From positions 2,232,695 through 2,296,694 of the forward strand of contig OZ250159.1 in assembly GCA_965237785.1 (NCBI GenBank): 64,000 nucleotides of DNA. The letters are read 5' to 3'. The first letter of the stretch is position 1, and each line of letters starts with the position of its first letter. The position numbers and the translations under genes were made by a program. The stretch is from Candidatus Rariloculaceae bacterium (GTDB taxonomy: Bacteria > Pseudomonadota > Gammaproteobacteria > Steroidobacterales > Rariloculaceae). Positions 1 through 49,182 of the stretch are shown here, piece by piece. The notes beneath the pieces were generated by a model. The model had not been told where the DNA came from, searched no databases, and was given only the letters and a program-made list of their open reading frames with translations.

Positions 1-786
1 GCCGGCAACGGCCCGCTGACCACGTACCGGGCCGTCAAGTACGGCGTACTGGCGGGTTTCTACCGTTATGCAATCAGCCGCGGTTACGCCAGCGTCTCAC
101 CGCTGCCGGACAATGAACCCAGGCGACCGCCGTCGGCTCCACCGTACATCTACTCACACGACGAACTGTGCCGGCTGTTCGGCGCAATCGATGACAGTCG
201 GCGGCATGCCGTCAAGCTGGATGCGCGCACCTTCCGCACACTGCTCCTTCTTCTCTACGGAGTCGGATTGCGTAGCGCCGAGGCGCTGAACCTGACGCTA
301 GCGGATGTCGATCTGGCGGCGACCGTGCTGACAGTGCGCGACACCAAGTTCTATAAGTGCCGCCTCGTCCCGGTCGGATCGCGGCTTGCCGATTCGCTGA
401 GAATGTATGCGGCGCGGCGCGCGCGTCGTCCTCTCCCGCAATCCACGGACTCCGCCTTTCTTGCGAACCGAGACGGATCTCCGGTGGTGAAACGAACTGC
501 CCAGGTCGCGTTTGCCGGGCTACTCTGCACCGCCGCGGTCCATGGCGCGGATGATGCCCGGCAATCCCCGTGCCTGCATTCGTTCAGGCACAGCTTCGCG
601 GTCCATCGGCTCACCGCCTGGTATCGGCAGGGCGCCGATGTGCAACGGCTGCTGCCGATCCTCTCGACCTATCTCGGTCATCAAGACCCGGCGGGCACCC
701 AAGTTTATCTCTCGATGACGCCGCAGCTGCTGCAACAAGCCTCGCTGCGCTTTGAGCGCTATGTACGGGGAGAGAACAATGAATGA
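1..786 (+). CDS. RIT element tyrosine recombinase B (5' part outside window)
   Basis: Frame open from base 1: PPYIYSHDEL, YGVGLRSAEAL, LHSFRHSFAVHRL, LSTYLGH..TQVYL; overlaps the next recombinase gene. Confidence 0.9.
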   Translation, partial: AGNGPLTTYRAVKYGVLAGFYRYAISRGYASVSPLPDNEPRRPPSAPPYIYSHDELCRLFGAIDDSRRHAVKLDARTFRTLLLLLYGVGLRSAEALNLTLADVDLAATVLTVRDTKFYKCRLVPVGSRLADSLRMYAARRARRPLPQSTDSAFLANRDGSPVVKRTAQVAFAGLLCTAAVHGADDARQSPCLHSFRHSFAVHRLTAWYRQGADVQRLLPILSTYLGHQDPAGTQVYLSMTPQLLQQASLRFERYVRGENNE

Positions 787-1774
787 GATCCGCACCCTGG
801 GCCCCTGGCTCGAACGTTTTTTCTTGGAACACATCGTCACCGAGCGCAATTTGGCCCGCAACACCCGTCTCAGCTATCGGGATACCTTTGAGCTGTTGTT
901 GCCGTTCGTCTGCACCAAGCTAAAGAAGCCAGACGAACGACTCCTCCTCCGCGACATCACGTCCGATCTTGTGCTGCAATTCCTCGCTCATCTTGAGGAA
1001 AACCGCGGCTGCTCCGCACAGACTCGCAACCAGCGTCTGGCGGCTATACGCGCGTTTGCCCGCTTCGTGGGGAGCCGCGACCCAGCGCATGTCGCATGGT
1101 GCGGCCACATCCGGGCAATTGCGTCGAAGAAGGCGACACCACAGCCGGTCGAATGGCTGACCAAGGCGGAGATGGATGCCATGCTCGAAGTACCAGACCG
1201 CAAGACGCTGCGGGGCCGGAACGAGTACGCTCTTCTGCTGTTTCTTTACAATTCCGGAGCGCGTGTCTCCGAAGCGACACAGCTGAGAATAGGCGATTTG
1301 GGGGTCGGCGGCCGTGATGGCCGCCATGCTCTCGTAATCCTGCACGGGAAAGGCGGAAAGATACGCCAATGCCCGCTGTTGTCAGAGACCGAACGCGTGC
1401 TTGCAGAGCTGGTAGCGGGGCGTGGTCACAGCGATGCCGTATTCCTCAGCAGGTATCGAAGACCTTACACCCGGTTCGGTGTCTATCGACTTGTTGAGCG
1501 TTGTGCGGCCAGCGTGCCTGCGCTGGCTGGGAGGAAAATAACCCCCCACGTGTTGCGGCATACGGCCGCGTGCCACTTGGTTATCGCGGAAGTGGACATC
1601 AACATAATCCGTGCATGGCTCGGCCACGTCTCAATCAATACTACGAACATTTATGCCGAGATCGATCTTGAAATGAAGGCCAGAGCATTGGCACTCTGCG
1701 ACATCGCCGAACAGAGTCCGAGCCGACCGTGGAAGGAGAAGAAGGGAATAATGGGCTTCCTGAAATCCTTGTAG
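779..1774 (+). CDS. RIT element tyrosine recombinase C
   Basis: SYRDTF, TRNQRLAAIRAF, YNSGARVSE, HGKGGK, PHVLRHTAA, WLGH..TTNIYA. Confidence 0.92.
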   Translation: MNEIRTLGPWLERFFLEHIVTERNLARNTRLSYRDTFELLLPFVCTKLKKPDERLLLRDITSDLVLQFLAHLEENRGCSAQTRNQRLAAIRAFARFVGSRDPAHVAWCGHIRAIASKKATPQPVEWLTKAEMDAMLEVPDRKTLRGRNEYALLLFLYNSGARVSEATQLRIGDLGVGGRDGRHALVILHGKGGKIRQCPLLSETERVLAELVAGRGHSDAVFLSRYRRPYTRFGVYRLVERCAASVPALAGRKITPHVLRHTAACHLVIAEVDINIIRAWLGHVSINTTNIYAEIDLEMKARALALCDIAEQSPSRPWKEKKGIMGFLKSL

Positions 1775-1784
1775 GCTCGCTAAA

Positions 1785-1866
1785 TTATGTTGCGGTGATT
1801 CTGGCTCCACCCAACATTGAAAGTGGCAACCAAGATCGCCGCAACATAACCGGCACCGCAACATTT
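1785..1866. repeat. RIT1 right terminal arm
   Basis: ttatgttgcg ... cgcaacataa ccggcac cgcaacattt; same layout as the RIT2 arms. Confidence 0.8.
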
Positions 1867-1887
1867 TACATGGAATACGCAGCATCC
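1867..1887 (+). mobile_element. Terminal tip of IS21 right IR plus target duplication GCATCC
   Basis: gaatacgca is the reverse complement of the IS21 left tip tgcgtattc at 42616; followed by gcatcc, which also precedes 42616. Confidence 0.85.
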
Positions 1888-28312: not shown

Positions 28313-30207
28313 GCAGCGGCGGCGCGTGTCTTAGCCCGACGTAAGCATTCGCTCAAGCCGGGATGAGTAGATGGCGAGGGGATCGATATGGGCTGATGAG
28401 AGGCGCCTGGCAAGGGACTGGTAACGCAGCTCGTCTTGCGGTATCGTACCGGCATGACGATTCTCGACGACGCAGTTGGGGCGGATATCACGTTAGTCGA
28501 GAGGCCCGATGGCCGGTGGTCCGCGCCCTCTGAGACGCAGTTGCGCGGGGAGTTGGATTGGCGGTTGCTATTCGAGCGGGAGCGGGCCCGCGCTGAACAG
28601 CTTCGCTGGTCGGATGTGGATGCGCGTTCTCGATCGGGCTGGCTGAAGTGGCAGCTCGACGCCTGCCGGGAGAAGCTGAAGGCGGCCGTGGAGGAGACCA
28701 AGGAGGTCCGCCGCACGGCCAGGGACGCCTTGTCCTTGCAGGCCGAAGTGGCGCGTCTGACGAAGTTGCTTGTCGCGATGCCGGTGTGGAGTCGAGCAAG
28801 CGCAGCACGATGGCGCGGGGAGTTGGATTGGCGGTTGCTATTCGAGCGGGAGCGGGCCCGCGCTGAACAGCTTCGCTGGTGTCGCTTCGCAAGGAAGTCG
28901 GGCGGCTGCGCAAGGCGCTGCGGGCGTTGGAGATCCGCACGGTGTCGCTGGAGGCTCAGCTTGCCAAGGTTCGCGCGACCAGGGCGGTGCTGTCGAAGAC
29001 GCTGTTCGGGCGCAAGAGCGAGAAGCAGGAGACGCCGCGCTCGCAGCGCCGACGCGGCCACCAGCCCGGCGCCGCCGGACATGGCCGCACGCAACGGCCC
29101 GCGCTCGAGGAGCGCACCGAAGAACACCACCCGCCGGCGGATGCGCGCGTGTGTTCGTGTTGCGGCAAGCCTTACGTGGCGAATGGCGCCGAGGTTTCCA
29201 CCCTCGTCGAGATCGATGTCGCGGCCCACAAGCGCGTGATCCATCGTCCGCGGTGGCGCCGGCTCTGCGCCTGCGCATCGTCGCCCCGGGAAGTGTCGGC
29301 GCCCCCGGCGCCGCGGCTGTTCGTCAACACACCCTACGGGACCAGCGTGTGGGCGCGGTTTTTGTTCGAGCGCTATGCCTGCTTGCGCCCGATGAACCGG
29401 GTCGCCGCGTGGCTGCGCGACCAGGGTCTGGCGATTTCGCCGGGCACGCTGGGCGACAGCGTGCACCGGTTCGAGCCGCTGTTCGAGCCGCTCGCCGAGG
29501 CGATTCTTGAACACCGGAATGAGGTGGCGGTGCGCCATGGCGATGAGACGGGCTGGCGCATCCAGTCGCTTCGCGGACAGGGCCGCTCGAGCCGCGCCTG
29601 GCTGTGGACCTCGGTCAGCCAGGACGCGGTCTATTTCCACATCGACCCCTCGCGTAGCGCCGCGGCGGCGGCCAAGCTGTTCGGCGATGCCGCGCCCGGT
29701 ACGGTGCTGGTCTGCGACCGCTATGGCGCCTATAAGAAGCTGGCCCGCGATCTCGCGGGTGTGCTGGTTTTGGCATACTGTTGGGCGCATATGCGTCGGG
29801 ATTTTATCGAGTGCGCGGCCGGTCGGGAGCAGCTGACGCCGTGGTGCCAGGGATGGCTCGAGCGGATCGCGTCGATCTACCGTTTGAACGAGGCGCGGCG
29901 GGCTGATTACGACCCCGGTCGCAAGCGCCAGACACCGGCGTTCGACGCGGCGCAAGGCACGCTCAAGGAGGCGCTCGACGGCCTGTTCGCGGGCGCCGAA
30001 CGGGAGCTGGCTACCCTGCCGGCGCAAGCGCGCGAGGGCAAGGCGCTGCGCTCGCTGGTGAACCATCGCGACGGATTGAGCCTGTTCGTCGACCGCCCCC
30101 AAGTGCCCATGGACAATAATTTTGCACATGCCGACATCCGTTTTATGCCGACAACGCGGCCCAAGTCATTGATCGACCGGGTCATGCGGCAGGATTTATC
30201 GGCATAA

Positions 30208-31209
30208 TCACAAAGCCTCCAGGAATGTCATCAGCTGATCATCGGGCCGGTAGATGCCCTCGGGAATATCGACCGGTCGCGTCCGGTCCATCGCGTCTTT
30301 CTTTATCTGCATGTCGGCATGCAGGTAGATTTGCGTGGTTTCAACCGTTTCATGACCAAGCCACAGTGCGATGACGGTGCAGCCGACGCCGCTGCGGAGC
30401 AGTTCCATGGCGGCCGAGTGGCGCAGCGTATGCGGACTGACCCGCTTGCTCTTCAATGTCGGGCAGGTCCCGGATGCCATCCGGGCGTATTTGCGCACAA
30501 TGCGCTCGATTCCGTCGCGACTGAAGCGTCCCCGGCGGGTACTCACGAACAGCGGCCGGTCCGGCGCTGCGGCCGTTTCGCCCAGCCAGCCGCGCAGCGC
30601 CTGCACACTGTCGGCGCGCAACGGCGTCGCCCGCTCCTTGCGGCCCTTTCCCCGGCAATGCACGTGTGCTTGGGACTGGGGCTCAAGGACCACGTCGCCA
30701 ACATTGAGACCGATCGGTTCCGACACCCTGAGACCGGTCTGCAGGGCAACCAGCAACAGGGTTCTGTCTCGCCGCCCGATCCATGTGGACAGGTCGGGTG
30801 CGGCGAGCAGTGCGGCGCACTCTCCCCGGTCGAGGTAGTCGATCATGCGTTTGTCATGGCGCTTCGCCGGTATGGTGAGCACCTGCTGGCAGTGATACAG
30901 CAGGGCGGGTTCGCGGACCGCGACGAACCGGAAGAACGCCCGGATCGTCGATCGGCGCGCGTTGCGCGTGCGGGGACTGTTCTGCCGGCTGTCTTCGATG
31001 AAGCACAGGAACCGCGCCACGAGATCGGCATCGATGTCGGTGACAAGCAGGTCGGTGGGCTCGCGCCCGACTTGTTCACAGGTGTAGTTGAGCAGCAGCC
31101 GGAAGGTGTCACGGTAGCTCGCCACCGTGTGAGGACTGGCCCCTTGCTGTGCGATGAGGCGATCGGCGAAGAAGCGCTGCACATAAGCAGGCAATGCATA
31201 CGTCGTCAT
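30208..31209 (-). CDS. RIT recombinase C
   Basis: SPHTVASYRDTF, TGLRVSE, GKGRKER, SPHTLRHS, WLGHE..TTQIY. Confidence 0.92.
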   Translation of the reverse strand: MTTYALPAYVQRFFADRLIAQQGASPHTVASYRDTFRLLLNYTCEQVGREPTDLLVTDIDADLVARFLCFIEDSRQNSPRTRNARRSTIRAFFRFVAVREPALLYHCQQVLTIPAKRHDKRMIDYLDRGECAALLAAPDLSTWIGRRDRTLLLVALQTGLRVSEPIGLNVGDVVLEPQSQAHVHCRGKGRKERATPLRADSVQALRGWLGETAAAPDRPLFVSTRRGRFSRDGIERIVRKYARMASGTCPTLKSKRVSPHTLRHSAAMELLRSGVGCTVIALWLGHETVETTQIYLHADMQIKKDAMDRTRPVDIPEGIYRPDDQLMTFLEAL

Positions 31210-32159
31210 GATGCCTCCTTTTGCGCGAATGACCGTTCCGCACGTTCGGTGGCCAGTTGCAGCAGTTCAGGCACCGCCTCCACGTACCAGTAGGTATTGC
31301 CCGGACGGCTGTGTCCGAGCCATGTGCTCAGCTTGTACATCTCCCGATCGGGGTTCAGCCCGGACCGGTACCAATCGATGAGGGTGCGGACCGCCATGGT
31401 GTGCCGCAGATCGTGCAGGCGCGGCCCCCGGCCGCGGTGGCCGGGCGGTTTGCGCTCCCGCAGGCCGATTCTCTGGCCGACCTTTGCAAAGTTGTATTCG
31501 GCTGTGCCGGTGCGGACGCGTTGAAGACGATCTCCGACGAAGAACGCCGGCGTCTCGACCGCGCCAAGGATCCGGTCACGCAATGACCGGTATTGCTCAA
31601 GGCGCCGACCGGTGCATGGGGTGAGAGCCAGCACACGGCTTCGGTCATTCTTCGCATGCCGGATATGCACCAGGGCGGCGTCCGTATCGACATCCCCATC
31701 GTCGAGCCCGAGCGCCTCGCCGATCCGAAGCCCCGTCACGGCAAGCAGGCCGAACAGCGTCGCATAGGTCGGGCCGCGCAGGCCGGGTTTTGACGGTAGC
31801 CGTGCGGCCTCGGTCACGATGGCGGCGATCTCGTTGTCGGTGTAGATGTAAGGCCGTGGCCGTCGCCGACCTGCTGGAATGAGGCCCCGGGGCGGCACTT
31901 CGGTCCGTGGATCGACGCTTTGCAGCCAACGGGCAAAGGTGCGCACATGGCTAAAGCGGTAGGACCAGCTTCGATTACTCGCTGAGCCGAACTGCGCTTT
32001 CCAGCATAGGAACAGGTCCGTGGTGACCCGTTCGGCGCCCTGGTCTGCCGCGAAGGAAGCAAACTTGCGTAATGCCTGCACAGCACTGGCCGACAGGCCT
32101 GTTCCGAAGCGGTCCCGCTGGGCGAGATACTGCTCCACGCGCTCTGTCAGCGGGATCAT
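31206..32159 (-). CDS. RIT recombinase B
   Basis: RPYIYT, TGLRIGEA, RLHDLRHT, LSTWLGH..TYWY. Confidence 0.92.
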   Translation of the reverse strand: MIPLTERVEQYLAQRDRFGTGLSASAVQALRKFASFAADQGAERVTTDLFLCWKAQFGSASNRSWSYRFSHVRTFARWLQSVDPRTEVPPRGLIPAGRRRPRPYIYTDNEIAAIVTEAARLPSKPGLRGPTYATLFGLLAVTGLRIGEALGLDDGDVDTDAALVHIRHAKNDRSRVLALTPCTGRRLEQYRSLRDRILGAVETPAFFVGDRLQRVRTGTAEYNFAKVGQRIGLRERKPPGHRGRGPRLHDLRHTMAVRTLIDWYRSGLNPDREMYKLSTWLGHSRPGNTYWYVEAVPELLQLATERAERSFAQKEAS

Positions 32160-33397
32160 CGCACCGCTCCCGGCACCGGCCATGACCGCGCAAGCGGTCG
32201 CAGTGCATCGATATCGTAGTGGGCGTATACGGCGGTCGATTGGCGGGAGCGGTGACGCAGGACATCGCCAATCTCTTCCAGGGAGGCGCCCCGGCCCAGC
32301 AGGTCCATGGCCAGACTGTGCCGCAGCGCATGGGTCCGGGCCTGGCCCCGGGGCGGAGTCAGGCCGGCCCGTTCGTACGCCTGGAGAAGGGCTCTGCGAA
32401 CGACCGGAGATGATGTGAACGGTCGATACGGCGGCCGCACGGATACAAACAAGTGACGCGACGAGCCCTGCCTGCCATTGCGGATCCAGGCGACCGCCGT
32501 CTCTCCCACATCGACGGGCAACGGCATGCGATCCAACTGGCCGGCTTTGCCGCGGACAACAAGCCTGCCGGCCCGCCAGTCGATGTCATCGAGCCGTACC
32601 GCGATCGCTTCCTGCCCACGAAGGCCGAGCCTGGCCATCATCAGCAGCATCGCACGATCGCGCCGTTCACGCGGGCTGTCGCCGCGAACCGCTTCGATCA
32701 GGTGACGCACCGTGTCGGGTTCGAGATGACGCGGCAGCCCATCGGGCCGGCTCCGTGCCGATCGTGGAACGGCGTCGGTCAGGTCGCGCGCGAGTCTGCC
32801 GTTCCAGAAGAGGAACCGCAGGACGTTGCGCAGATACGGCAGTCGCCAGTTGGACTTTCCCGAGAAGCCATCTACAAAAGCGAAGATGCTTTCCGGCGTA
32901 ATGCCTCTCGGATCGTCCAGCGCCCGGGTGCTCGCACCGCAGAACGTCATGAAGCTCTTCAGAATGCTCCGGTGCGTGCGCAGCCGTCTTCCGAACATCC
33001 CACGATGCTGCCGCAGCCAGGCATCGAACTGCGCACTCAACTGTTCCAGCGAGCCCGATGCAGGTGGCGGCGCGGGAAGCATCGGTGCGATCGCGCCGGA
33101 ATCGACCAGGTAGTCGGCAAACCGTCGTGTGACCGATATCAAATCCCGCTCCATCGAAGGCGATCCCGTTCGCGGACATGCTGCCGAGAGATCCGCAAGT
33201 ACGCCTGCATCGACATCGTCGGCCGCGAGTCCGCGGGCATCGAGCGCCGCACAGAGCCGGCCGGTCATGAGCCGGTAGGTGGCCAGGGTACGCTCGGCAT
33301 AGCCTTGTCCGACAAGACAGTTCAGAAACGCGCTGCGATGCGGCGCCCACCAAGAGGAATCCATCGATGCCGATGGAGGCGATATACAACTGGACAT
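32156..33397 (-). CDS. RIT recombinase A
   Basis: RDRAMLLMMARLGLR, IDWRAG, HALRHSLA, DVLRHRS..STAVYA. Confidence 0.92.
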   Translation of the reverse strand: MSSCISPPSASMDSSWWAPHRSAFLNCLVGQGYAERTLATYRLMTGRLCAALDARGLAADDVDAGVLADLSAACPRTGSPSMERDLISVTRRFADYLVDSGAIAPMLPAPPPASGSLEQLSAQFDAWLRQHRGMFGRRLRTHRSILKSFMTFCGASTRALDDPRGITPESIFAFVDGFSGKSNWRLPYLRNVLRFLFWNGRLARDLTDAVPRSARSRPDGLPRHLEPDTVRHLIEAVRGDSPRERRDRAMLLMMARLGLRGQEAIAVRLDDIDWRAGRLVVRGKAGQLDRMPLPVDVGETAVAWIRNGRQGSSRHLFVSVRPPYRPFTSSPVVRRALLQAYERAGLTPPRGQARTHALRHSLAMDLLGRGASLEEIGDVLRHRSRQSTAVYAHYDIDALRPLARSWPVPGAVR

Positions 33398-33834
33398 GGT
33401 TCATCCCTTTCGTGTGAAAACGAAAGAAATGTATGCCAGAACGCGTACAACTTAGAATCCCGTGATTATGCCGACAAATCCTGCCACATGACCCGGTCGA
33501 TCAATGAGTTGGGCCGCGTTGTCGGCATAAAACGGATGTCGGCATGTGCCGCGCTATGCCGATATCGGCATAGTGCGGCCGAACGCGCGCTCAGAGGACC
33601 GGCGATCGGAAGACGGCTGTCCTTCGGGTCCGACAGCGAGACCGGCGCGCGCTTCACGGCGCGGATGTATTCGATCGTCGCCACCCTCGCGTTAAACGGC
33701 ATCGATGTCCGGCACTGGCTTCGGGCGTGGCTGGACGCGTGTGCGGCCAACGGCGGGCGGGCGCCGCCGGATCTGTCCGCATGGCTGCCCTGGTCGATGA
33801 ACGAGGCGCGCAAGCGCACCCTCATGACGCCGCA

Positions 33835-34716
33835 ATGACCGGTCAAGTCGAGTGCCGCTATTACGGGCGCGACTTCACGACCGAAGAGATGGCGCTGCTG
33901 CGCGCGCTGATCGCCGGCCCGCCGCTTTTGAACCGCCATCGGCTGTCGAAGGCGTTTTGCCGGCGCATCGGCTGGCTCAAGCCTGACGGCGGGCTCAAGG
34001 ACATGATGGCCAGGGTGACGATGCTGGACATGCACCGCGACGGCCTCATCGTCCTGCCGCCGCCCACGCGGGGCCAGAACCGGCCCGGCCCCATCGCCTT
34101 CGGACCCGATACCGACGCACCGCTGGAACCGCCGCCGACCGCCCTCGATGACGTGCGCCCGCTCAACCTGCGGCCCGTACTCGGGCGCACGCCCCAGAGC
34201 CTGCAGTGGAACGCGTTCATCGCCCGCTACCACTATCTCGGATACAAGACCCTGGTCGGCGCCCAGATACGCTACACCGTCCACGACCGCGACGGTCGGC
34301 CGATCGCCCTGCTCGGCTTCTCCACCGCGGCATGGAAGCTGGCCCCGCGCGACCGCTTCATCGGATGGACGCCGCCCCTGCGCGAGAAAAACCTCCCGCT
34401 GGTGCTCGACAACCCGAGGTTCCTTATCCTGCCCTGGATCGCCATCCCCAACTTGGGTTCGCACATACTCGCCATGATCCGCCGGCGCTTGCCCGCGGAC
34501 TGGACCGAGCGCTACCGCACCACGCCCGTATTGATCGAAACGTTCGTCGAAACGCCACGCTACACCGGCGCGGTCTACCACGCATCCGGCTGGATCCGCG
34601 TCGGAACCACCCAGGGGCGCGGGCGCTACGACCGGCACAAACAATACGACAAGCCGAAAAAGGACATCTGGCTCCGGCCCCTCCGAAGAGACTGGAAGCG
34701 AATCCTCAATCGATAA
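33835..34716 (+). CDS. DUF4338 domain protein inside IS66
   Basis: RYYGRDF, YHYLGY..VGAQIRY, RDRFIGW, NPRFLILPW, ETFVE, Y.ASGW..VG.T.GRG. Confidence 0.82.
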   Translation: MTGQVECRYYGRDFTTEEMALLRALIAGPPLLNRHRLSKAFCRRIGWLKPDGGLKDMMARVTMLDMHRDGLIVLPPPTRGQNRPGPIAFGPDTDAPLEPPPTALDDVRPLNLRPVLGRTPQSLQWNAFIARYHYLGYKTLVGAQIRYTVHDRDGRPIALLGFSTAAWKLAPRDRFIGWTPPLREKNLPLVLDNPRFLILPWIAIPNLGSHILAMIRRRLPADWTERYRTTPVLIETFVETPRYTGAVYHASGWIRVGTTQGRGRYDRHKQYDKPKKDIWLRPLRRDWKRILNR

Positions 34717-42615: not shown

Positions 42616-42711
42616 TGCGTATTCTGAGGGAAAGTTGCCACCCGTTCTAAGGCAAAGTTGCCACCTGTTCTAAAGCAAAGTTGCCACCCGTTCTAAGGCA
42701 AAGTTGCCACC

Positions 42712-43763
42712 CTGAGGCGGAGGTCTTTGTCGCGGCGCTGGGTGCGTCCAACTACACCTATGCCGAGGCGACCTGGACGCAGGGCCTGAGCGACTGGATC
42801 GGTTCGCATGTGCGCACCATGGAGTACCTCGGCGTGGCGCCCGAAATCGTGGTGCCGGACAACCTGAAGGCCGGCGTCACCAAGGCGCACCGCTACGAGC
42901 CCAAGCTCAACCGCACCTACCAGGAATGGGGCGAGCACTACGGGGTTGCAATCTTGCCTGCCAGGCCGAGAAAGCCGAAGGACAAGGCGAAGGCCGAGAC
43001 GGGCGTGCAAGTGGTTCAGCGGTGGATCCTGGCGCGGTTGCGTCACCGCCAGTTCTTCTCCCTGGCCGAACTCAACGAAGCCATCGCGGAGTTGCTCGAG
43101 CAGCTCAATACGCGCCCGTTCCAGAAACTGCCCGGGTGCCGGCGGGAGCTGTTCGAGACGCTGGACCGCCCGGCGATGAGGCCGTTGCCGGCGCAGCCGT
43201 ACGAGTACGCGGAATGGAAGAAGGTGCGGGTCAACATCGACTACCACGTGGAGGTCGACCGCCACTACTACTCGGCGCCCTATCAGTTGATCAAGGAACA
43301 GCTCGATGCGCGCATCACCGCGAACACCGTAGAGTTGCTTCACCAGGGCCGGCGGGTGGCCAGCCATGCCCGCAGCTGGCGCCGCGCCGGCCACACCACG
43401 GTGCCCGAGCACATGCCGGAGAGCCACCGGGAACAGGCCAAATGGACGCCGGAACGGTTGATCGGTTGGGCAGGCAAGACAGGCCCATGCACTGCGGCCG
43501 TGGTCGAGCACATCCTGGCCACGCGCAAGTATCCGCAGCAGGGCTTCCGCACCTGCCTCGGGATCATCCGCCTGGGCGATCGTTACGGGCAATCGCGGCT
43601 GGAGGCGGCCTGCAAGCGGGCGATCGCGCTCGGCGCCTACGCCTACAAGAACGTCGAGTCGATCCTGAAGAACAAGCTGGAAAACAAGCCCCTGCCGCCA
43701 TCAACCCCGGAACTGCCGGGCATTGACCATGAGAATCTCCGCGGCCCAGGCTACTTCCACTAA
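42712..43763 (+). pseudogene. istA: IstA transposase, 5'-truncated
   Basis: [41 protein letters not shown]. Confidence 0.9.
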
Positions 43764-43786
43764 CCCCAACCGAAGAGGAACTGAAA

Positions 43787-44550
43787 ATGTTGTATCACCC
43801 CACCGTCGAGAAACTCGCCGAGCTGCGCCTCATGGGCATGCACGCCGGGTTGCTGGAGCAGCAGGACATGACCGATATCGAGCGGCTGGGCTTCGATGAA
43901 CGGCTCGGGTTGCTGCTCGACCGGGAGGCCACCTTCCGCGCCGAGCGTCGGCTCCAGTACCGGATCCGCAACGCCCGGCTGCGCCAGCCCGCCGTCATCG
44001 AAGACCTGGACTATCGGCACCCCCGCGGACTGGACCAAGCCCTGATGAACCGGCTCATCACCGGGCAATGGATCAAGAAGAAGCTCAACTTGCTGATCAC
44101 GGGGCCGACCGGCGTGGGAAAAACCTGGATCGCCTGTGCCCTGGGCAACAAGGCCTGCCGCGACGGCTTCACCGTTCAGTACCGCCGTCTCTCGCGGCTG
44201 TTCGATGAACTCGGCTACGCCCACGGCGACGGCCGCTACCCGAAGATGATGAAGAAACTCGCCCGAACCGACGTCATCATCCTGGATGACTGGGGACTGA
44301 CCAAGCTCACCGCGCCTCAGCGCCGCGAACTGCTGGACATCCTCGAGGACCGTCACCGGCACCGCTCCACCGTGGTGACCAGCCAGCTGCCCGTGGAGCA
44401 CTGGCACAAGATGATCGGCGAACCGACCCACGCCGACGCCATCCTCGACCGGCTCGTGCAAACGCCTATCGCATCAACCTGAAAGGAGAATCCATGCGAA
44501 AACTCAACGCCACCAGGAACCCGAAAACCTCATCCAAGAACGGACTCTAG
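43787..44550 (+). pseudogene. istB: IstB ATPase, frameshift near the C-terminus
   Basis: GPTGVGKT, ILDDWG, TSQLP, DAILDRLV, then a shift to NAYRINLKGESMR. Confidence 0.9.
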
Positions 44551-44629
44551 GCGATCCGCGTCGCTGCGCTCCGAGGGGTGGCAACTTTGGCCTGGAATGG
44601 GTGGCAACTTTGCGCTGGAACAGGTGGCA

Positions 44630-44669
44630 ACTTTACATGTTATGTTGCCGGCAACATAACATGTAAAGT
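44630..44669. repeat. Perfect 40-bp palindrome containing RIT1 core motifs
   Basis: actt tacatg ttatgttgcc|ggcaacataa catgta aagt. Confidence 0.95.
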
Positions 44670-44886
44670 AAGCGGTGGGTGAGCGGGTGAATTTCAAGTT
44701 CAGTGTTGTGTCGAGTAGCGGGCTCGGCAACATCAGTGGCAAATCGACGTTTGGGGAGAGGGAATTTCAACGGCGCAGGCGACCTGCCCCGGTGAGTTCA
44801 CCCTGTTCTGAATTGTATGGGTTCCGACTGACACGTCGTAAGCGGAATACGGTGCGCGCCGGAGGCGGAGTACGGGGGTGCGTCGA

Positions 44887-46002: not shown

Positions 46003-46822
46003 CGTTTGACGATCCAAGAAATTGGCAGCGCAAGAAAATAGCAAACATGCATCCGATTCGTGTCCGTATCCTTGCAGAGTCAGGCGAATTTATACCAATT
46101 GGCCGCACCGGCAATAGGCGGCAGACACACGCTTGGCAGCAAGGTCGGGTGCGACGTCCCGAATCCCGTTAAGTGTACAACCGAGCTTGTATTGCTGGCC
46201 CCAATTGGGAGAGCAATGGCGATAGGCGGTTTTGATGCCATATGTCTGACGTCGGTCAAGTGAGACACGTGAGCATGTGTCCGGTAAGGCGCATATTTCG
46301 TTGATTTAAATACATAAAATGGACGGCAATGCCGAGCGTAATTCTTCCGTCGGACGATACGTCAACAAACCGGAACGGAACGCATTCAAGTTCACGCGCG
46401 CGTGGACGCGCTCGAGCGGACGGTTCGTATCGTTCGTCACCCAGTAAATTGTTTCCGTTCGGTGTTGCCGTGTTTTTGGTGCCTGTAGCCAGACGAGAGT
46501 CACACCCAGCGGGCATTCTGATCCTCTACCGATACCGTCATCACGGCTCCGCCGAACGATTGCTGTAAATTGAAGGATACGAGCAGCGCCGAGTCGGCAG
46601 TGTCCACCATTCCCGGGGCACTCCAACTACTATTCTGCGCTATCTGCCAGCACCAATCTGAAAGTGTAGTCATTCTGCCAGTCTGAAATTGTTGTTTTCT
46701 TCGGCGGCGTCTTCTTCGAAAAGCTTCCACTAAACGTTTCTTCGTTTTCTTCGTTTTCTTCGGACCGTTGACGTTCGGTGCCCCGGTCCGGTGCCGATGG
46801 CCGCATCATTGGCGGTCGGAGG

Positions 46823-47022
46823 AAGCCGATCGATGACGAAGCGAAGACGACGCAAGTGTCTGAACTGTGGGCGGTTGTTTCGCCCGGACCCGCGCAATCG
46901 GCGGCACCAGCGTTACTGCTCGGCGCCCGATTGCCGCAAGGCGAGCAAGGCGGTGAGCCACGCGCGCTGGCTGTCCAAACCGCAGAACCGGGACTACTTC
47001 TGCGGCCCGGAGCATGCGGTGC
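46823..47022 (+). pseudogene. Cys-rich ORF fragment of the type found in IS21-like elements
   Basis: RKCLNCGRLFRPDPRN..QRYCS.PDCRKASK; upstream repeated ctgccag..ctgaaa may be an element end. Confidence 0.45.
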
Positions 47023-47595
47023 GGGCAGCAAACCCCAGTCCTCGGCCAGCCGGTACATCTGGGACAGCGTACGCACCACCCGGTTGGCCTGGTTCGGTGT
47101 GTCGCACAGCCGCTGATGAAGTCCCAGCACGTCCTTGCGTTTTACACTTCTCAACGGCTTCTTCCCGAACGCCGGCAGGATGTGAACGTCGATCGCGCTG
47201 CTCAGTCGTCTCGCCGAGGCCGGTTTGAGGCGCACCGCCACGTACTCGTTCCTGAAACGACGGGCCACCTCCGCGACGGTGGGTCCCCCCGCCATCGATT
47301 CGGGCACTGCAGACTCGCCCGCGCGGATTCTCGCAATGATCAGCGCCGCCCGCTTTCTCGCCTCCTCGGCGTTCATCACCCCGTGGCGGCCCACCCGCAC
47401 GCGTTTCGGGCCCTGCGGGCTGCGGGCGTGCGCGAGATACACCTTTCCGCCGGTTGGGTAAACTCGCACGCCGAATCCGGTGAGACTGCGGTCCCAAAAC
47501 ACCGTGTCCTTCTCCACCTTCAAGGTGTTCACCGCGCGGTTCGAAAGCGTCCTCGGCGGCGAGCTTGTCACTTTCCTATCCACTGCCTTTCTCAT
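47023..47595 (-). pseudogene. Phage-type integrase, N-terminal arm-binding part only
   Basis: FWDRSLTGFGVRVYPTGGK, GRHG, EEARKRA; catalytic domain missing. Confidence 0.8.
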
Positions 47596-47598
47596 CGC

Positions 47599-48795
47599 TC
47601 ACGCTACCCTGGATCCATCGGGCTCAAGATGCGCTCCGATGCTCCGGCCCACCCGTCCGGCCGCGGCCTGCTCCGCGTCCCGCACCAGGTGCGCGTATCT
47701 CGCCGTGGTACCAATTTTGCGATGCCCAAGCAATCGGCCGATCGTCTGCAGATTTTCTCCCACGCCCAGCGCCCAGGAGGCGTAGCTGTGACGCAGGTCG
47801 TGCAACCGAACATCGTTCAGACCCGCCCGTTCGCGGATCGTTTTCCAATGCTGGTGGAACCGGGATCTCCCGCCTCCGAAGCGCTCACCCGCGATCACCT
47901 TCTCCGAACCCGCTGTGCGGGGCACCGCTGCGCGGGGCAGCCGCTCCAGCACCGCCGCCACCGCGCGCGTCAGCGGCACCGATCTCGGCCCCGTCTTGGA
48001 ATCCCTCAGCCGCAACACCCCCGCCGTTCGATCCACATCGTCCCAGCGAAGCGAGAGAATCTCCGAACGCCGGCACCCGGTCAGCACCAGGAGCCGAACC
48101 GCGGCGATCGCGCCCGATCCGACCGAGCCGTCCGATTCGGCTTCGTTCAATACCCGTCCCAAGCGCCGGAACTCCTCCCGGCTCAGAAATCGTTCCCTCG
48201 CCGGGACCTTGTACATCTTCACCGAGCGGCACGGGTTCGTGTCTTCCAGATACAGTTCCCAATCCTGCGCCAGCGTCATCATCCTGGAAAACACCCGTAT
48301 CGCCTGGTTGGCCTGATGCGGCGTCGCGTGAAGCCGCCGGTGAAGCGCAATCGCGTCCCCCGTTCCAATCGACTCCACCGCACGGGCACCAAGCGCCGGG
48401 AGAATCTGGTTTTTCAGGGCATTACGATACAACCGCACCGTGCCCGGTTTGCAATGCACTGCCACGTACACCCGCAGAAACCGCTCCGCGAGGCTCTCCA
48501 CCGTGAACGGACCCTTCGGCTCGGTCTCGAGATCCTCCCCCCGCTTGATCCGCCCGATGACCGTCGCTGCCCGCTTTCTGGCCGCGTCCGCCGTGATCTC
48601 CCCGTGACAGCCCAGGCTCACGCGTTTGGATCCGTGCGGGCCGCGCGATTGCACAACATAGACTTTCCGGCCCGAGGGGTGGACGCGAACGCCGAAACCG
48701 GCGAGATCGCGATCCCAGAACAGGGTATCCTTGTCCGGCGCCCGTAGCGCTTCCACGGACCGCTTGGTGAGGCGTATCGAACGGCGTGGGCTCAT
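47599..48795 (-). CDS. Tyrosine integrase with arm-binding (DUF4102-like) domain
   Basis: WDRDLAGFGVRV, RERFL, TGCRRSEI, DSKTG, RLHDLRHSYAS, LLGH..TTARYAH. Confidence 0.92.
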   Translation of the reverse strand: MSPRRSIRLTKRSVEALRAPDKDTLFWDRDLAGFGVRVHPSGRKVYVVQSRGPHGSKRVSLGCHGEITADAARKRAATVIGRIKRGEDLETEPKGPFTVESLAERFLRVYVAVHCKPGTVRLYRNALKNQILPALGARAVESIGTGDAIALHRRLHATPHQANQAIRVFSRMMTLAQDWELYLEDTNPCRSVKMYKVPARERFLSREEFRRLGRVLNEAESDGSVGSGAIAAVRLLVLTGCRRSEILSLRWDDVDRTAGVLRLRDSKTGPRSVPLTRAVAAVLERLPRAAVPRTAGSEKVIAGERFGGGRSRFHQHWKTIRERAGLNDVRLHDLRHSYASWALGVGENLQTIGRLLGHRKIGTTARYAHLVRDAEQAAAGRVGRSIGAHLEPDGSRVA

Positions 48796-49182
48796 TGAAT
48801 CTCCGGAAGGATGAAGGTTGCGGTTCCGGGAAATCCGTAAGCATACCGGAAACACGCGACATCGTATGGAGGGTCATTGGAGCGCAGAATTGTCAGGAAG
48901 GCAAGAGCGCATGGACGTAAGAGATTCGATAAAGTATCTATATTACAATACGTTATGATACTTCTGAGCGCTTATGTCATATTGTGCGCGAATGAAAGCG
49001 GGGGCTCGTCGCTCTTGGCCATCCCTGGCACGCTCCTCGCCCACGACACTCGCAAGTCTGTCCGCACACTCCATCGCACCTCGACGCACCGCGATGATGG
49101 GCGCGCGCATGGATTTGACGAGCCGCCGAGCAGGCGGGCATCATCGCGCTGGCTGGCAATTCCCTTTGTATCAGGAAGTCCA

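Follow-up and report, generated by a model that had tools for sequence, protein, structure and literature searches.

RITs are present in many bacterial phyla. Directly outside the right (ritA-side) arm of the RIT2 element examined here, immediately after the arm end ...ggcatgt, lies a 32-bp block (33548-33579), and the question that this locus raises is what the block is and what part it plays in the movement of the element. According to the available parts of the published accounts, RIT movement has never been reproduced in the laboratory and the site requirements are called unclear (PMC3414803; PMC10214605, Table 1), with the same table of the 2023 SE paper giving RIT target specificity and movement as not tested ('NT'). 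Van Houdt et al. (2012), in the text available, noted an overlapping palindrome and variable RIT ends, judged these features to be unlike the usual binding-site layouts and left the mechanism open. A first-pass annotation of this DNA had described the block as part of the ritA end of RIT2 and its palindrome as a small adapter; comparison with related sequences confirms that observation in part and supports the interpretation in part.

The features of RIT2 and of the gene that it interrupts are listed by their position in the window, which is the whole 64,000-nucleotide stretch of DNA that was analysed.

28879..30119, plus strand: 5' part of an IS66-family transposase gene, the left half of the target, interrupted by RIT2 (Pfam DDE_Tnp_IS66, 1.7e-51)
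30120..30125, plus strand: 'far' hexamer ttttgc, the target's own 6 bp, at the arm without a palindrome; the empty IS66 reads aataattttgc/cgaacg (slash, insertion point); tgcggc in genomic copy 2
30126..30211, plus strand: ritC-side arm of RIT2 (88-nt inverted repeat, 30124-30211), with ATGCCGA cores at 30128 and 30145 and an inverted core at 30197
30208..31209, minus strand: ritC (Phage_integrase, 1.3e-32, and a SAM-like domain; R..HxLRH..H..Y present)
31206..32183, minus strand: ritB (Phage_integrase, 1.1e-13; catalytic pattern present)
32156..33397, minus strand: ritA (Phage_integrase, 2.3e-23; catalytic pattern present)
33462..33547, plus strand: ritA-side arm of RIT2 (inverted-repeat partner, 33462-33549)
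33548..33553, plus strand: 'mid' hexamer gccgcg, between the ritA-side arm and the palindrome; gccgca in genomic copies 2 and 3
33554..33573, no strand: 20-bp palindrome CTATGCCGATATCGGCATAG, read as two putative back-to-back recombinase half-sites; of the TTATGCCGAnnTCGGCATAA type in RITs of Alphaproteobacteria and Actinomycetota
33574..33579, plus strand: 'outer' hexamer tgcggc, foreign to the target (not in the empty IS66 site) and identical in all three copies
33580..33800, plus strand: 3' part of the IS66 transposase gene, the right half of the target; the frame goes on as ERALRG... and is 98-100% identical to other IS66 copies

RIT2 shares the known traits of RITs, namely a ritA-ritB-ritC trio, inverted repeats, multiple identical copies and insertion in transposase genes. 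From left to right the genes are placed ritC-B-A between 88-nt inverted arms that are 97% complementary; all three are on the minus strand, in the order ritA-ritB-ritC with overlaps of 28 and 4 nt, as in other RIT trios. The GLR, HxLRH, H and Y columns of the RIT catalytic pattern (R..HxLRH..H..Y) are invariant in RitA, RitB and RitC. Apart from these recombinases, which are of 325-413 aa, and frames that overlap them, no ORF was listed between the arms. The genome contains three copies of the element, with 99.9-100% identity.

The block was detected in a repeat search of the window as a palindrome of 16+16 nt (94% complementary). Its 20-mer, CTATGCCGATATCGGCATAG, occurs once in the window even when up to three mismatches are allowed (0.01 occurrences expected from shuffles) and three times in the 4.39-Mb one-contig genome, always at a copy of RIT2. 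The RIT2 arms contain the same ATGCCGA core as the palindrome. Just past the IS66 remnant there is an ORF that matches the DruA family (Druantia) (window 33727-34716, plus strand; Pfam 1.1e-36).

All three copies of RIT2 are located at the same position of IS66-family transposase genes on the one contig of this genome. The 400 nt of flanking sequence to the left of the element are 100% identical in the three genomic IS66 copies, and 395 nt are so in a fourth. This fourth copy is empty; it reads ...gacaataattttgc/cgaacgcg and encodes DNNFAER. Comparison of the empty copy with the three occupied copies defined the insert as the sequence from arm to arm plus 6 bp, the 20-bp palindrome and a further 6 bp, a total of 3454 bp without target duplication. 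Consistent with the first-pass annotation, ttttgc was the target's own sequence and the two spacers on the ritA side were foreign to it. In the assembled contigs of four public runs, searched over 29800-33900, the sole precise joint connected 30123 to 33578 and skipped 3454 nt. This joint (one contig, depth 2) equals the empty IS66 form that is also present in the genome; no circle joint was found in these contigs over the same interval.

For comparison between copies, the far hexamer was read from the target towards the arm, the mid hexamer from the palindrome towards its arm and the outer hexamer from the palindrome towards the target. The three copies of RIT2 then read as follows.

RIT2 copy 1: far TTTTGC, mid CGCGGC, outer TGCGGC
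RIT2 copy 2: far TGCGGC, mid TGCGGC, outer TGCGGC
RIT2 copy 3: far TTTTGC, mid TGCGGC, outer TGCGGC

The hexamers therefore varied among copies of a single element that share a target site. In the mid hexamer, copies 2 and 3 agree and copy 1 departs from them by 1 nt. The far hexamer of copy 2 is not the result of ordinary divergence, because three adjacent bases are changed exactly there, between IS66 flanks that are 98-100% identical. Copy 3 has its body in the opposite orientation with respect to IS66; its palindrome keeps to the same side of the target and adjoins the ritC arm, which means that the palindrome is not a feature of a 'ritA end'. The order gccgcg-CTATGCCGATATCGGCATAG-tgcggc after ...ggcatgt was as first described, but its assignment to the ritA end was not upheld, since in copy 3, as in five of the 12 other RITs with a palindrome, it adjoins the ritC arm.

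These other RITs were found in a survey of 24 elements from relatives, one MAG and plasmids of Alpha-, Beta- and Gammaproteobacteria and Actinomycetota. A search with a single RitA protein had given two loci, both from one MAG. Across the phylum, 8 of the 401 genomes searched held relatives of RitA; plasmid records were taken into the survey in place of these 8. A pair of arms was detected in 19 of the 24 elements, and those without such a pair (L033, L038, L040 and L042, from plasmids, and L056) were left unscored. A strict palindrome, defined as at least 8 matched bases per half with no more than one mismatch and lying no more than 45 nt outside an arm, was present outside exactly one arm in 12 of the 19 scorable RITs (seven on the ritA side, five on the ritC side and none on both). 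The background level was 273 in 20,000 random 53-nt windows from the same loci. No strict palindrome was found in the remaining seven scorable elements (RIT1, L024, L026, L029, L043, L057 and L059); there is an imperfect 26-bp palindrome near L026, and L024 and L029 have in common a 32-bp imperfect palindrome 10 nt from the arm. All five sphingomonad RITs fetched afterwards, each inserted in a strawberry-notch gene, carry the palindrome. With these five and the 12 of 19 scorable elements, the design is represented in RITs from three phyla. Neither of the two observations that would have refuted the first-pass reading, a lack of the palindrome in other RITs or invariant hexamers, was made. A palindrome also lies beside the ritC arm of L038, although no arm pair is detectable there; for L035, which is outside the 24-element survey, a palindrome scan confined to the vicinity of the rit genes found none.

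The distance between palindrome and arm is fixed. Among 16 occurrences of the ATGCCG-type palindrome across 15 loci, 15 have an ATGCCG or ATCCCG core that starts exactly 8 nt from one edge of the palindrome, on one side only; in the sixteenth (L058) the core at this 8-nt distance is ATGTGG. In the same 15 of 16, the palindrome half and the arm core share GGCAT../..ATGCC in inverted orientation, 6+2 nt apart, as expected of a core-type site. Given this fixed spacing, the palindrome half, the 6 nt and the segment made up of 2 nt and the arm core take the form of a core-type recombinase site. In loxP, FRT and dif, inverted half-sites of about 10 bp surround an overlap of 6-8 bp, where strand exchange takes place. 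The RIT unit has the same form, and differs from those sites in that two sites would share the central palindrome back to back and in that the overlap need not match between partners. In the sphingomonad elements L074 and L075 the palindrome combines two half-site types, TAATGTTGAG and TAATCTGGAT, in either order, which supports the reading of the palindrome as two separate half-sites; this is in agreement with the small adapter that had been proposed at first. Chance, a terminator and an operator were considered as readings of the palindrome and rejected on the basis of its conservation, fixed spacing and position.

In an alternative reading the palindrome is a hairpin or cruciform signal, active as a folded single strand or as the hairpin end of an intermediate that is linear or single-stranded, or else it serves as a terminator or operator. 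Hairpin intermediates were proposed for sphingomonad RITs from palindromic repeats of 47 and 51 bp by Nielsen et al. (2017; PMC5737581), whose available text also reports that read mapping found no circular junctions. Against this, it is the sequence itself and not just the pairing that is kept across phyla (TTATGCCGA..TCGGCATAA), hybrids of two half-site types exist in L074 and L075, and the spacing from palindrome to arm core is fixed. Furthermore, there is no T-run, and the palindrome may be at either end relative to the genes. We consider a hairpin role to be very unlikely.

Two minor observations were made on the surveyed loci. The Sphingopyxis plasmid of L034 has, at 442-461, a second ATGCCG-type palindrome at a distance of 8 nt from an arm core. 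It is situated 4.4 kb upstream of the RIT that was scored and could mark another RIT end or be a relic. In L057 (Marinobacter) and L059 (Aromatoleum EbN1 plasmid 2), arm pairs cannot be assigned simply, as the RIT trios are nested or back to back with additional rit-like genes.

The boundaries, the spacing and the hexamers are best explained if the 32-bp block is that part of the RIT recombination site which the element itself carries, acting through a two-site circle with a 6-bp carry-over, and we regard this as the probable reading of the sequences. The 20-bp palindrome would be two recombinase half-sites placed back to back, each of which, together with the adjoining 6 bp and an arm's terminal core, would make up an ordinary core-type tyrosine-recombinase site, with inverted half-sites and a 6-bp overlap. 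In the circular form, the order arm, hexamer, palindrome, hexamer, arm would create two equivalent sites in inverted orientation, and either could be used for integration, which would account for the presence of the palindrome beside ritA in some copies and beside ritC in others.

The integrated element would then have three hexamer positions: far, flanked by the target and the bare arm, with the 6 bp native to the target; mid, which separates the palindrome from the other arm within an intact site; and outer, beyond the palindrome. The three crossover positions postulated at first are in keeping with this arrangement, since each of the three hexamers appears to be flanked by recombinase-type half-sites. 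When the element leaves, the donor's far hexamer would enter the circle, as in Tn554 and the SEs; on arrival, the hexamer of the site that is used would become the outer hexamer and the other would remain as mid. Under this carry-over rule the mid and outer hexamers would be records of earlier targets. For a single step from donor X to product Y without a flip, the mid hexamer of Y should equal the mid of X and its outer hexamer the far of X; with a flip of the palindrome side, the outer hexamer of Y should equal the mid of X and its mid hexamer the far of X.

Two further families provided hexamers for comparison. Five plasmids carry one Phaeobacter RIT, which in every case is inserted at the HExxH codons of ArdC and is found in four states.

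L037: far GACCCA, mid CACGCA, outer GGCTCA; palindrome adjoins ritC
L052: far CACGCA, mid GGCTCA, outer GGCCCA; palindrome adjoins ritA
L053: far GGCCCA, mid GGCTCA, outer GGCCCA; palindrome adjoins ritA
L054 and L055: far GGCCCA, mid CACGCA, outer GGCTCA; palindrome adjoins ritC

All four hexamers of this family are Ala/Thr-His codon variants of the ArdC HExxH target. The empty ArdC site of a near-identical Phaeobacter plasmid reads ...catgagct GGCCCA tgccacgaaagc, and the far hexamer GGCCCA of L055 is therefore native and its outer hexamer GGCTCA foreign. The second family, the G001 RIT, has five copies, which represent three events, all in the LYVDNG codons of rve-type transposases. Its states, in the order far, mid, outer, are given below.

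TCGACG, TCGACG, TCGGCG
TCGTCG, TCGACG, TCGACG
TCGACG, TCGGCG, TCCACG

Empty copies of the target IS elements were sought in G001 and none was found there, every copy detected being occupied. In addition, two relatives of RIT2 in the MAG have caggcg/cgcctg and ctgcag/ctgcag, respectively, around the same palindrome; in the latter, ctgcag is also present at the far end, inside an IS21 istA gene.

These data bear on the simplest alternative, in which the 32 bp are an extension of one inverted repeat that travels unchanged and takes no part in strand exchange, with the copies differing by mutation. A fixed asymmetric end of this kind would be compatible with the outer hexamer common to the RIT2 copies and with L037, L054 and L055, which come from one Phaeobacter strain (P80) and share mid and outer hexamers while the far hexamer differs; under the carry-over rule, this sharing requires either a common master copy or a retained donor outer hexamer, as in Tn916. 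However, hexamers differ at 3-4 adjacent positions between flanks that are 98-100% identical, the same hexamers reappear at other positions in other copies together with a flip in orientation, and all of them are valid target codons. The movement of hexamers between copies already disfavours a fixed end, which we consider very unlikely.

The one-step rule was examined by enumerating all ordered pairs of copies within the RIT2, G001 and Phaeobacter families. Eleven pairs fit the hexamers. For eight of them the rule specified whether the palindrome side should flip, and the observed orientation agreed in all eight; the other three were uninformative. The independent informative transitions number at most five (L022/L023 to L019/L021 in G001; L053 to L052; and L052 to L037, L054 and L055), and because the genealogies were constructed after the data had been seen, they are supportive and do not constitute proof. 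In the transitions from L052 to L037 and from L022/L023 to L019, the former mid hexamer is the outer hexamer at the new target and the palindrome has changed sides, a result that neither a fixed end nor inversion in place would yield.

Inversion in place would be a switch in which the recombinases invert the body of the element between the far and mid sites and swap their hexamers, the orientation being changed after insertion. The far and mid sites are indeed inverted relative to each other, and copy 3 of RIT2 differs from copies 1 and 2 in just this way: it occupies the same position in IS66 and its palindrome faces the same side of the target, but its body is inverted. Such a switch cannot alter the outer hexamer, yet in the two transitions described above, which are at different targets, the outer hexamer equals the former mid. 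We consider this reading somewhat unlikely; inversion in place may occur alongside transposition.

The origin of the foreign hexamers has a possible precedent in Tn916 and Tn1545, whose coupling sequences are variable 6-bp junction sequences that come from the previous insertion site. RITs resemble these elements in having variable 6-bp junction sequences that probably come from a previous site, and the first-pass annotation had drawn this parallel. If coupling were of the Tn916 type, cuts staggered by 6 bp would leave a heteroduplex joint in the circle and at both junctions, and after replication or repair donor or target bases could be found at either junction. Copy 2 of RIT2, whose foreign far hexamer does not fit the one-step rule without an extra assumption, has a foreign hexamer at both junctions, which is easier to obtain by heteroduplex and repair than by the strict Tn554/SE rule. 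Under the latter it would be explicable by the footprint of an earlier visit in that IS66 copy, or by repair; no such footprint was observed. By contrast, segregation of a heteroduplex would place donor bases at either junction, whereas in all three informative insertions (RIT2 copies 1 and 3 and L055), a small sample, the known native hexamer occupies the far junction and is absent from the outer junction. Tn916 also has one integrase and Xis, no palindromic adapter and no internal third hexamer. We consider Tn916-type coupling unlikely. Carriage of the spacers from a previous site is consistent with the finding that hexamers other than the target's own correspond to codons of the same family of target genes, but the specific likeness to Tn916 was weakened, as the Tn554/SE rule fits at least as well.

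In the available text of PMC10214605, the 6-bp rule of SEs and Tn554 takes the 6 bp of attB to attL and the 6 bp of the donor's left flank to attR. The same source describes these elements as tyrosine-recombinase transposons with a target preference and no target duplication, like RITs, and RIT2 copies 1 and 3 and L055 match their arrangement, in which one junction retains the 6 bp of attB and the other has 6 bp copied from the donor flank. RITs differ from them in having three recombinases of ordinary size and no visible TnpC/Srap-type protein, where Tn554 and the SEs have one large and one ordinary recombinase with a TnpC/Srap-type protein. RIT ends, moreover, are long, near-perfect inverted repeats, and the extra palindrome would provide a second site, inverted to the first, as well as a third position for a hexamer; the orientation could then flip and two earlier targets could be recorded. 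Movement of Tn554 and the SEs is by strand-biased copy-out, through a circle with the hexamer of one flank and without an empty donor site.

What can be read directly from the sequences is where the insertion begins and ends, that the spacing is conserved, and that the hexamers vary, match target codons and shift position with a flip in orientation; by this comparison the site layout and the carry-over of hexamers are well supported. The circle, the points of cleavage and the direction of carry-over are inferred; RitA, RitB and RitC might divide the labour among themselves, and the layout might be linked to the need for three recombinases. In the available part of Smyshlyaev (2021; PMC8138268), RitA has two core-binding domains and RitC an extra C-terminal helix.

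A wider proposal, to which we give slightly less than even credence, is that the RIT circle joint is a symmetric double attachment site, that each jump overwrites one of two 6-bp registers, and that copies consequently log their last two insertion sites and the site used. Genealogies would then be readable across plasmids and genomes, and RITs would home to conserved motif codons in the genes of other mobile elements. RITs themselves are already known; this hexamer site logic was not found in the literature searched. That full-text search, made without Ricker et al. (2013, Plasmid 70:226), which may describe part of it, yielded no hexamer carry-over, palindrome role or two-site reading for RITs. 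With a site layout that has three crossover positions, a rule for each hexamer and natural pairs of donor and empty target (the Phaeobacter plasmids and the IS66 copies of this genome), RIT movement becomes open to direct experiment. If the hexamer log is real, the spread of RITs between plasmids could be traced from sequence alone, and the 6-bp carry-over of Tn554 and the SEs would extend to a third, much more widespread group of tyrosine-recombinase transposons.

A second RIT, RIT1, and sequences related to it are also present in the window.

1..1866, plus strand: RIT1, partial in the window, with ritB' (1-786), ritC (752-1774) and the ritC-side arm with ATGTTGC cores (Pfam)
1867..1881, plus strand: hexamer tacatg and gaatacgca, equal to the last 15 nt of the IS21-like right end; without a palindrome
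42616..44639, plus strand: IS21-like element with an internal deletion, comprising istA' (42681-43763) and istB (43760-44550), its right end cut after ...tttacatg (Pfam rve/Mu-transpos_C_2 and IstB_IS21; terminal repeats)
44634..44665, no strand: tacatg, TTATGTTGCCGGCAACATAA and catgta, the RIT1-type palindrome with its hexamers, the only copy in the genome
44666..44760, plus strand: degenerate RIT1-like arm (relic) with no rit genes behind it, which aligns to the RIT1 arm including the inner ...GGCAACAT... core

The string tacatg-TTATGTTGCCGGCAACATAA-catgta had at first been described as an end of RIT1. It exists, as part of a 40-bp perfect palindrome, but it is 42.8 kb from RIT1, beside a decayed RIT1-like arm in an IS21 end. 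RIT1, which occupies 1-1872 of the window and extends upstream of it, is single-copy in the genome, with its ritA-side arm 1.8 kb upstream of the window, and there is no palindrome beside either of its arms. An intact relative of the IS21-like element in G015, which begins TGCGTATTCTGAGGC... and ends ...GGCAGCTTTACATGGAATACGCA, serves as an empty site for the RIT1 type; its end shows that the palindrome and the relic arm interrupt the right end of IS21 between TACATG and GAATACGCA. At RIT1 itself (genome 2230850-2234575), arm-TACATG-GAATACGCA is found at both ends in inverted orientation, that is, the last 15 nt of the IS21-like right end TACATGGAATACGCA. This arrangement may be the product of an inversion between two RIT1-type copies, in which case the relic at 44634-44760 may be the other product.

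An ATGTTGC-core RIT in G011 (L025) carries TTATGTTGACATCAACATAA, flanked by tatcgc and gcgata, beside its ritC arm. The statement that each palindrome is built from the core of its own element thus holds for RIT2, with ATGCCGA in its arms, and at the family level for the ATGTTGC type, but not for RIT1 as it stands. Two other readings were set aside. The sequences TGCGTATTC/GAATACGCA beside RIT1 are not an outer arm or a palindromic target, since they are the termini of the IS21-like element that is intact in G015, and an end-to-end junction of IS21 is not supported for the palindrome at 44640, since its right flank aligns to the RIT1 arm and not to the IS21 left end.

Several further features of this region were observed. 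The left terminal repeats (four units) of the IS21-like element at 42616-44639 are fused directly to the middle of istA (rve domain), and istB appears to be frameshifted close to its 3' end, at about 44465. The RIT1 arm is partly duplicated about 370 bp further in, and in the rearranged ritA-side region of RIT1, upstream of the window, a 148-bp stretch (genome 2231070-2231217) is 100% identical at three other places. Two tandem P4-type integrase genes with Arm-DNA-bind_3, which are not rit genes, lie at 46630-48855 of the window on the minus strand; the downstream gene retains only its N-terminal half, and a small Cys-rich plus-strand ORF starts near 46830.

The targets of the RITs examined, at window positions 30120-30125 and in L019-L023, L032, L036-L041, L052-L055 and L071-L075, are conserved-motif codons in the genes of other mobile elements (DNNxAER of IS66, LYVDNG of rve-type transposases, GVTLQLLW of the IS21 IstA, HExxH of ArdC, and strawberry-notch genes) together with the IS21 right end. 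This distribution suggests that RITs home to multicopy mobile DNA. When the target halves were compared with the half-sites by eye, IS66 and ArdC showed no clear in-register likeness, and only the IS21 end resembled the RIT1 arm core.

On the Phaeobacter plasmids pP13_c and pP80_b (L036 and L055), two different RITs are inserted at the identical ArdC position in near-identical backbones, and other strains have the site empty. Different RITs with bodies about 65% identical are likewise located at the same spot of a 94%-identical 2.6-kb flank in G011 (L024, 5437-9128) and G016 (L029, 5253-8944), each 10 nt from the 32-bp imperfect palindrome, which may be a resident landing site reused by different RITs.
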